From a virus, in the IMG/VR virus record IMGVR_UViG_3300043446_002688: 64,000 bases of DNA; one strand, given 5' to 3'. Below, piece by piece: positions 60,842-61,080 of the stretch (position 1 is the first letter of the stretch; each line of letters begins with the position of its first letter). The position numbers and the translations under genes were made by a program. A model generated the notes under the pieces. The model ran no database searches. It saw only the letters and a list, made by a program, of their open reading frames with translations, and was not told the DNA's origin.

Positions 60842-60870
60842 TTGCCAAGGTGCCAAGTTTACTATATAAT
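60842..60870 (+). promoter_or_regulatory. Sigma70 promoter of the tRNA-array leader
   Basis: TTGCCA-17bp-TATAAT. Confidence 0.75.
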
Positions 60871-60902
60871 ACAAACATATTTAATTTTTTAGAAAGAAAA
60901 AA

Positions 60903-61013
60903 GTGTCTCTCATATCCCATAAACCCTTTACGTTGCAGCCAGAGTATCGCACCATTAATAGTGCCGATAATGGCTCATGGTCGCTCGGGTTTTGTGTGAA
61001 GATGGAGAACTGA
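60903..61013 (+). CDS. Putative attenuator leader peptide, 36 aa (MSLISHKPFTLQPEYRTINSADNGSWSLGFCVKMEN)
   Basis: GTG start after AGAAAG; all 20 amino acids; 31 distinct codons; overlaps the antiterminator strand. Confidence 0.65.
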   Translation: MSLISHKPFTLQPEYRTINSADNGSWSLGFCVKMEN

Positions 61014-61045
61014 AAACAGAAGTTCTAAAAAGACTCCAAACACAA

Positions 61046-61080
61046 GACCCTAGTAAGAGAAATCTACTAGGGTTTTTTGT
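61046..61080 (+). terminator. Intrinsic terminator/attenuator ahead of the tRNA array
   Basis: ACCCTAGTA...GA-GAAA-TC...TACTAGGGT followed by a T-run. Confidence 0.85.

Follow-up and report, generated by a model that had tools for sequence, protein, structure and literature searches.

A leader reading frame of near-complete amino-acid content ahead of a phage tRNA array, probably part of a ribosome-dependent attenuator

The window, a stretch of 64,000 nt of DNA from an uncultured T4-like phage (IMGVR_UViG_3300043446_002688), carries at 60842-61078 a leader unit made up of a promoter, a 36-codon open reading frame (ORF) and an intrinsic terminator, placed ahead of an array of transfer RNA (tRNA) genes. 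Sequence comparison across related phages established a translated frame, an RNA pairing (segment 2 with segment 3) that is the alternative to the terminator (segment 3 with segment 4), a near-complete amino-acid content of the leader and a fixed position before the array. We consider it reasonably probable that the unit is a ribosome-dependent attenuator whose leader resembles a roster and which controls read-through into a complete tRNA array.

The relatives, all uncultured phages, were gathered via the gene upstream of the element, giving 80 viral contigs. Further copies came from a DNA pattern scan, a protein hidden Markov model (HMM) search and look-ups of four HMM matches, and more divergent versions were added from inspection of the heads of tRNA arrays, for a total of 54 distinct leader peptides. 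Duplex and switch tests were performed on 43 distinct elements, and sensing-window and tree tests on 40 leaders. Among 1.84 billion protein representatives the HMM search returned 18 matches at E <= 0.001; 16 were fetched, and all were short ORFs with the leader motif. DNA identity of the element among relatives was 68-85%, with 84-85% identity found where the neighbouring protein was just 59-66% identical. The public runs containing the stretch were mostly freshwater or aquatic metagenomes.

The leader frame and its amino-acid content

Relatives kept the ORF in frame while its peptide diverged (54 distinct versions), as the earlier note on this DNA, made from the letters alone, had anticipated for an element of this kind. 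In a codon-blind nucleotide alignment all 185 gap runs within the ORF were multiples of three, compared to 58, 128 and 21 runs with lengths of 0, 1 and 2 modulo three past the stop codon, and no in-frame stop was present in the ORF of any of the 54 versions. Start codons were conserved, with an ATG, GTG or TTG located 6-9 nt past a GGAG or GAAAG stretch, or with a leaderless ATG exactly 6 nt past the -10 hexamer, the alternative to the leaderless arrangement being a leader of about 32 nt with a Shine-Dalgarno-like stretch. A deletion of about 34 nt produced the leaderless start in L019, L020, L023, L024, L027, L077, L021, L002, L028, L031, L001, L003, L004, L005, L008 and L044, and the same regulatory ORF thus appears to have two modes of translation start.

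The three codon positions varied about equally (entropy 0.99, 1.02 and 1.12), indicating that the frame rather than the peptide is selected. The best-conserved residues were located on stem-forming nucleotides, and the codons GAG, TAT and CGC showed no synonymous variation. Codon adaptation of the leader was 0.40 compared to 0.70 in phage genes (p = 8e-4), its G+C content at third codon positions was 0.57 compared to 0.29, and it used 31 distinct codons in 35, compared to 22.1 on average (p = 4e-4). The first 22 codons were all different, and 21 of the 36 ended in G or C. A kept frame, a diverging peptide and poor codon usage together are the usual picture for a regulatory leader and differ from what a protein-coding gene would show.

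All 20 amino acids were present in 33 of the 54 leaders and at least 19 in 47, with a mean of 19.4 over lengths of 25-44 codons. Length-matched windows of phage proteins held a mean of 13.7-16.8 amino acids, with a probability of 2e-4 to 1.3e-2 of holding all 20. For windows of 36 residues this probability was 1.5e-3, so the 20 of 20 in 36 codons, to which the earlier note had drawn attention, exceeds chance. No amino acid was enriched in the leader; there was no run of regulatory codons, and diversity was maximal.

Column shuffles of the alignment gave 77 missing amino-acid types compared to 14 observed, with none of 5000 shuffles as low, and among 11 representatives with less than 60% identity 23.9 were missing in the shuffles compared to five observed (0/5000). 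An amino acid absent from its usual column was nearly always present elsewhere in the same leader (His 17/18, Gln 16/17, Lys 14/14, Asp 16/16), and a second copy was found in a minority of leaders in which the usual column was filled (His 4/22, Gln 3/23, Lys 9/26, Asp 9/24). Cys too relocated between columns instead of disappearing. Terminal branches, although they make up just 53% of the length of the tree, carried 12 of 13 amino-acid losses (p = 0.003).

The leader tree had a total length of 6.8 substitutions per site. Neutral simulation along this tree, in which the root leader was complete, site rates came from the data and stop codons were rejected, gave a mean of 17.0-17.6 amino acids, compared to 19.65 observed, and no more than 18.7 in any of 1200 runs; complete leaders at the tips numbered 0.6-1.9 in the simulations and 27 of 40 in the data. 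Coverage in relatives was near-complete despite divergence, a positive outcome for the comparative test that the earlier note had proposed, and the tree-aware nulls never reached the observed value. Judged by these comparisons, shared ancestry alone does not explain the completeness, and what appears to be selected is the set of amino acids in the leader and not their positions.

Alternative RNA structures and the tRNA array

Segments 2 and 3 pair over 11 bp, and CCC at 61048-61050 is common to this pairing and to the terminator stem (Table 1). A 2:3 duplex was predicted for each of the 43 elements, at -11 to -23 kcal/mol, and with shuffled partners as the control its family-wide mean z was -3.8. 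Pairing with the cognate partner gave a mean of -18.0 kcal/mol compared to -12.7 kcal/mol for partners taken from foreign clades, 9% of which were as good, and the covariation score of the pairing was above all 500 shuffles (500/500). The antiterminator pairing, described in the earlier note for this one stretch, is thus kept in related phages by covariation. Pairs counted at fixed columns of the MAFFT alignment reached moderate figures only, and a slide of +2 paired 74.5% of cells; clades differ in register, and we therefore relied on duplex tests per individual sequence.

Every relative had a terminator, the stem of which showed compensatory changes (helix 6, 84% paired). In 43 of 43 elements three to five bases were common to the segment 2 and the segment 4 pairing, and the variants of these shared bases (CCC, CCCC, CCCTC, CCTC) changed jointly with both partners. 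Terminator hairpins were predicted at about -8 to -15 kcal/mol and the 2:3 duplex, with its mean of -18.0 kcal/mol, is the stronger of the two, so a free segment 2 should block termination. Folding of the free whole transcript favoured the terminator state in 40 of the 43 elements, by a mean of 4.2 kcal/mol. Masking of the first 36 nt, in imitation of a ribosome, made the terminator and antiterminator states isoenergetic. The energy shift on masking depends on a putative pairing of codons 2-9 with segment 2 (helix 1:2). This helix was predicted in the minimum free energy structure of the window and of most relatives, with 79% of alignment cells paired. Segment 2 was located within codons 27-33 across the elements, with the stop codon between 4 nt before and 19 nt after its end.

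Hairpin P1 inside the ORF (helix 4) had 83% of alignment cells paired and is possibly a pause or synchronising hairpin. The hairpin spanning the stop codon had 39% of cells paired in the fixed-column count. Promoter P1 matched the consensus at 11 of 12 positions, and its hexamers were invariant or nearly so in alignment A1, with a variable spacer. The promoter, ORF, long-range pairing, terminator, stop-codon hairpin and internal promoter listed in the earlier note were all located where it had placed them.

Table 1. Coordinates of the leader unit and of the downstream features in the window
Feature	Position	Strand	Description
Promoter P1, sigma-70 type	60842-60870	+	-35 TTGCCA at 60842-60847, 17-nt spacer, -10 TATAAT at 60865-60870
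Putative 5' untranslated region	60877-60902	+	Weak purine-rich ribosome-binding stretch AGAAAG at 60891-60896; predicted transcription start
Leader ORF	60903-61013	+	36 codons, GTG start, TGA stop, 20 amino acids, 31 distinct codons
Segment 1, putative anti-antiterminator 5' strand	60918-60926	+	Pairs with segment 2; tentative
Hairpin P1, inside the ORF	60937-60975	+	Lower stem nucleotide-invariant, apical part length-variable
Segment 2, antiterminator 5' strand	60987-60997	+	GGGTTTTGTGT, leader codons 29-32
Small hairpin spanning the stop codon	61006-61026	+	Sequence and position vary among relatives; tentative
Segment 3, antiterminator 3' strand	61040-61050	+	ACACAAGACCC; last 3-4 bases (61047/8-61050) form the base of the terminator stem
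Intrinsic terminator	61047-61078	+	Stem 61047-61073, T-run 61073-61078
Promoter P2 and conserved boxA-like stretch	61106-61169	+	TTGCCA-16-TACAAT at 61106-61133
tRNA array, regulated target in the proposed scheme	61175-64000	+	First gene tRNA-Gln(UUG); 16 tRNAs to the end of the window, continues beyond

The element was located directly upstream of the tRNA array in every locus with enough downstream DNA, and the array of the relatives almost always started with tRNA-Gln(UUG). Promoter P2 was found between terminator and array in most relatives. No promoter-like site was found between the terminator and the first tRNA in L170, L029, L026, L015, L204, L044, L055 and the L008 lineage, where the T-run ended 2-49 nt ahead of the first tRNA, and with no promoter in that interval the element would gate the array in those lineages. 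The earlier note had proposed such gating while pointing to the internal promoter just after the terminator; in the relatives the element does head the array, and at least seven lineages have no promoter between terminator and first tRNA. Among near-complete relatives (94-100%), two had 28 tRNAs for all 20 amino acids and two others had 25 and 27 tRNAs for 19 amino acids. Since these tRNAs cover 19-20 amino acids, a complete leader heads a complete tRNA set.

Metatranscriptome contigs from two studies (X15, X16, X18 and X20) covered the leader, and one contig in each of two runs bridged the terminator. Ends, strand and level are not readable from contigs, and DNA carry-over is possible.

Several features of the array and its surroundings were observed alongside. 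The stretch after the -10 hexamer of promoter P2 (TGTTCTTTAAAAATTTGT, similar to rrn boxA; 61128-61169 and again 61848-61889; A1 columns ~385-430) was nearly invariant in relatives and may recruit host antitermination factors; the whole P2/boxA-like unit recurs inside the array at ~61826-61889. ARAGORN reported no tRNA at 61329-61416, where the Rfam tRNA-Sec model gave a weak match (32 bits, E = 0.0018). Relatives carried a tRNA-Ser(UGA) at the equivalent place, between tRNA-Gln and tRNA-Ser(GCU), and the stretch is probably a long-arm tRNA-Ser missed by ARAGORN. A 92-nt tRNA-Ile with the anticodon UAU at 61622-61713, on which the tRNA-Sec model (30 bits) scored above the standard tRNA model, was kept as Ile-tat in the arrays of many relatives. 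The array also contained, between tRNA-Trp and tRNA-His, an RNase H-like ORF (63415-63900; PF04308, E = 2e-14). In the L008 lineage the array was rearranged and started with tRNA-Ser or tRNA-Trp, with the terminator abutting the first tRNA. L010 had Gln in the leader together with a tRNA-Gln in the array, and L022 had a tRNA-Gln and no Gln codon. A 10-kb fragment of this small-array lineage carried no tRNAs for Ala, Phe, Ile, Lys, Leu, Gln or Val, which is too little to call a match between the gaps of the leader and those of the tRNA set.

Upstream of the tRNA region, the stretch 57682-59877 encoded a homologue of RegA (PF01818, E = 2e-46), the T4 translational regulator, together with Hsp20, rubrerythrin and a small rubredoxin-like protein; a dCMP deaminase homologue and a SprT-like gene were also located upstream. 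A lone tRNA-Met(CAU) was located at 59099-59175, flanked by the genes for Hsp20 and rubrerythrin and some 2 kb ahead of the array. It was present in the same place in relatives and is beyond the reach of the attenuator. The nearest cultured phages with the upstream SprT-like gene (Caulobacter Cr30 and Stenotrophomonas DLP_6) had no tRNA array beside that gene. The phage collection, searched at DNA level for both near and distant matches, yielded no cultured relative of the element, and a tblastn search with the leader peptide against 50,697 phage records gave no match at E up to 10.

Proposed attenuation and competing explanations

In the proposed scheme, transcription would start from promoter P1, an early promoter, and a ribosome would translate the 36-codon leader. 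A ribosome in step with the polymerase at the end of the leader would occupy segment 2, or would have just unwound it, leaving segment 3 to pair with segment 4, so that the terminator forms and transcription stops at ~61073-61078. A ribosome delayed in roughly the first 25 codons would leave segment 2 free to pair with the emerging segment 3. That pairing would remove the G-C base of the terminator stem and the polymerase would read into the tRNA genes. The leader contains one or two residues of nearly every amino acid, so that tRNA transcription should rise whenever almost any charged tRNA runs short, and the leader would stand as a roster of the whole tRNA set behind it. We infer from this arrangement the timing, the role of the ribosome, helix 1:2, the pause at hairpin P1 and the physiological trigger. 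It is possible, and we put it forward tentatively, that the 20-amino-acid roster is itself selected as a real-time test of every charged tRNA, by which the phage turns its own tRNA transcription up when any one fails. If true, the phage would possess a self-tuning tRNA supply and also an answer to host defences based on tRNA cleavage or depletion (anticodon nucleases, PARIS, Schlafen-type nucleases).

Several observations weigh against this scheme. The overlap of terminator and antiterminator is limited to three to five bases. Helix 1:2 was no better than that formed with shuffled 5' regions (mean z -0.8; 10.5 compared to 8.3 pairs), which leaves the state adopted without a ribosome uncertain. 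The stop codon of the L011/L012 clade is located 13-19 nt past segment 2, a position from which a terminating ribosome may fail to cover that segment. Where promoter P2 follows the terminator, the attenuator would modulate only transcripts from promoter P1 and from upstream. The leader codons were not better matched to the phage anticodons (80-94% read) than background codons (72-97%); codon matching is thus uninformative, and sensing of host tRNAs and of phage tRNAs is inseparable.

The roster itself also has gaps. Leaders of the L008 lineage (30 codons; L008, L010, L013, L014, L016 and L022) held 16-18 amino acids and were without Ala, Gly and mostly Gln, L044 held 17 in 25 codons and L001 held 18. 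Under a strict sensing rule, by which a stall on segment 2 or within about four codons of it should favour termination, the sensing window held 15-19 amino acids (mean 17.6). In 35 of 40 leaders every Val codon was placed at segment 2 or past it, and 10-12 leaders had His, Gly or Trp outside the sensing window. The proposal of the earlier note that a stall at almost any codon induces read-through would by this rule apply to 15-19 amino acids, and not to Val or, often, to His, Gly or Trp. Its interpretation as a whole is supported in the architecture and in the comparative predictions for relatives, with host tRNA damage a merely conceivable trigger and part of the geometry putative.

The same gaps would suit an attenuator that senses general transcription-translation coupling or ribosome availability, with the all-20 content as a by-product of RNA constraints and of repeat-codon avoidance. 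The conserved Glu-Tyr-Arg-Thr, Asp, Trp and Gly lie on nucleotides fixed by pairing, Val and often His, Gly and Trp stand where a stall should not induce read-through, and some lineages manage with 16-18 amino acids. The simulations that gave 17.0-17.6 amino acids against 19.65 observed retained the site rates and thus the RNA constraints, however, and none of the 1200 runs reached the observed value. Rare amino acids moved columns rather than vanishing, and the losses were confined to terminal branches (12/13), which together make this explanation unlikely in our judgement. An incidental open frame within a non-coding structured or riboswitch-like RNA would account for the strong nucleotide conservation and the covarying helices. 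The gaps are frame-preserving in 185 of 185 cases, though, with conserved starts and in-frame stops in 0 of 54 versions, and an Rfam scan of 60818-61174 matched no family at E up to 1 (T-box, riboswitches and known leaders included), so we give a non-coding origin next to no weight.

The unit could also be an independent small gene for a trans-acting 36-residue peptide or a stable RNA of about 200 nt, with its place before the array plain synteny and the long-range pairing serving RNA stability or processing. It has its own strong promoter and terminator, promoter P2 restarts transcription in most relatives, trans action is known for leader peptides and for attenuator RNAs (peTrpL, rnTrpL), and at the nucleotide level the element has diverged less than the protein gene next to it. 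Against this, the ORF has no protein-like codon periodicity, its peptide diverges freely outside the RNA-paired stretches, its codon usage is poor (0.40 compared to 0.70), a Pfam search with the leader peptide gave no match, and the cluster representatives are few (16 fetched) among the 1.84 billion proteins. A C-run that changes with both of its partners points to a switch, not a static structure, and several lineages have no promoter between terminator and tRNAs. We regard an independent gene as improbable, and the ribosome-dependent attenuator remains our preferred explanation.

Why phages carry tRNA genes and how these are controlled has been debated for decades. If true, the attenuator would be a virus-encoded homeostat of translation capacity that extends trp-type attenuation to the whole decoding system, and could form part of a general control principle for viral tRNA genes. 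At ~240 bp it would also be a compact natural part for translation-stress sensing. The comparative signal is itself unusual, in that selection appears to act on the presence of amino acids and not on their placement.

Comparison with known systems

Like the enterobacterial attenuators (trpL, hisL, leuL, thrL, pheL, the ilv leaders and pheST), the phage element combines a promoter-proximal ORF with a terminator and an exclusive antiterminator, places the switch partly inside the ORF, has near-equal state energies and is expected to read through when the ribosome stalls. It differs from them in having no run of regulatory codons but nearly every amino acid once or twice, in a sensing stretch of about 25 codons with an internal hairpin, and in its target, a tRNA array instead of biosynthetic or synthetase genes. 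Its helix 1:2 is putative and its overlap with the terminator is just 3-5 nt.

Stalling on a leader ORF also switches a terminator off in the vmlR and bmrCD-type attenuators. The antibiotic-resistance attenuators of the mef/msr leaders likewise use a ribosome stall on a short leader ORF to switch the terminator off (PMC4335068). In attenuators of resistance genes, unlike the phage element, the stall is caused by a drug and often depends on a specific nascent peptide, with no roster logic. The T-box shares the goal of raising read-through when a tRNA is uncharged, but it binds one tRNA directly and has no ORF.

The mycobacterial whiB7 upstream open reading frame (uORF) attenuator has been demonstrated by experiment to be a general sensor of translation stress in which the composition of the uORF sets the amino acids sensed (PMC10274678). 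One codon suffices there for sensing starvation of the corresponding amino acid, and loss of the sole Trp codon greatly lowers the response to Trp (PMC10274678). As whiB7 illustrates, enrichment in regulatory codons marks the classical single-amino-acid type and not the mechanism. As in the phage element, a uORF of mixed composition is set over a Rho-independent terminator/antiterminator, and the uORF of M. smegmatis has all amino acids but Cys. The two are not homologous, however, and the whiB7 uORF is Ala-rich (25-40%), variable between species and incomplete in M. tuberculosis, with a transcription factor as its target. The phage leader, by comparison, is short, its completeness is apparently selected and its target is tRNA supply.

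The earlier note knew of no description of such an element. As a concept the element does have a described precedent, since whiB7 makes a generic translation sensor not new (PMC10274678), but for tRNA genes or phages no leader attenuator was found in the full-text literature searched, nor was any regulatory logic for phage tRNA arrays found there. Phage tRNAs are reported to rescue infection from tRNA-cutting defences (PMC10264068, PMC11464382). What the present element would add to the known systems is the complete tRNA array of a phage as the target, a short leader and evidence of selected completeness.

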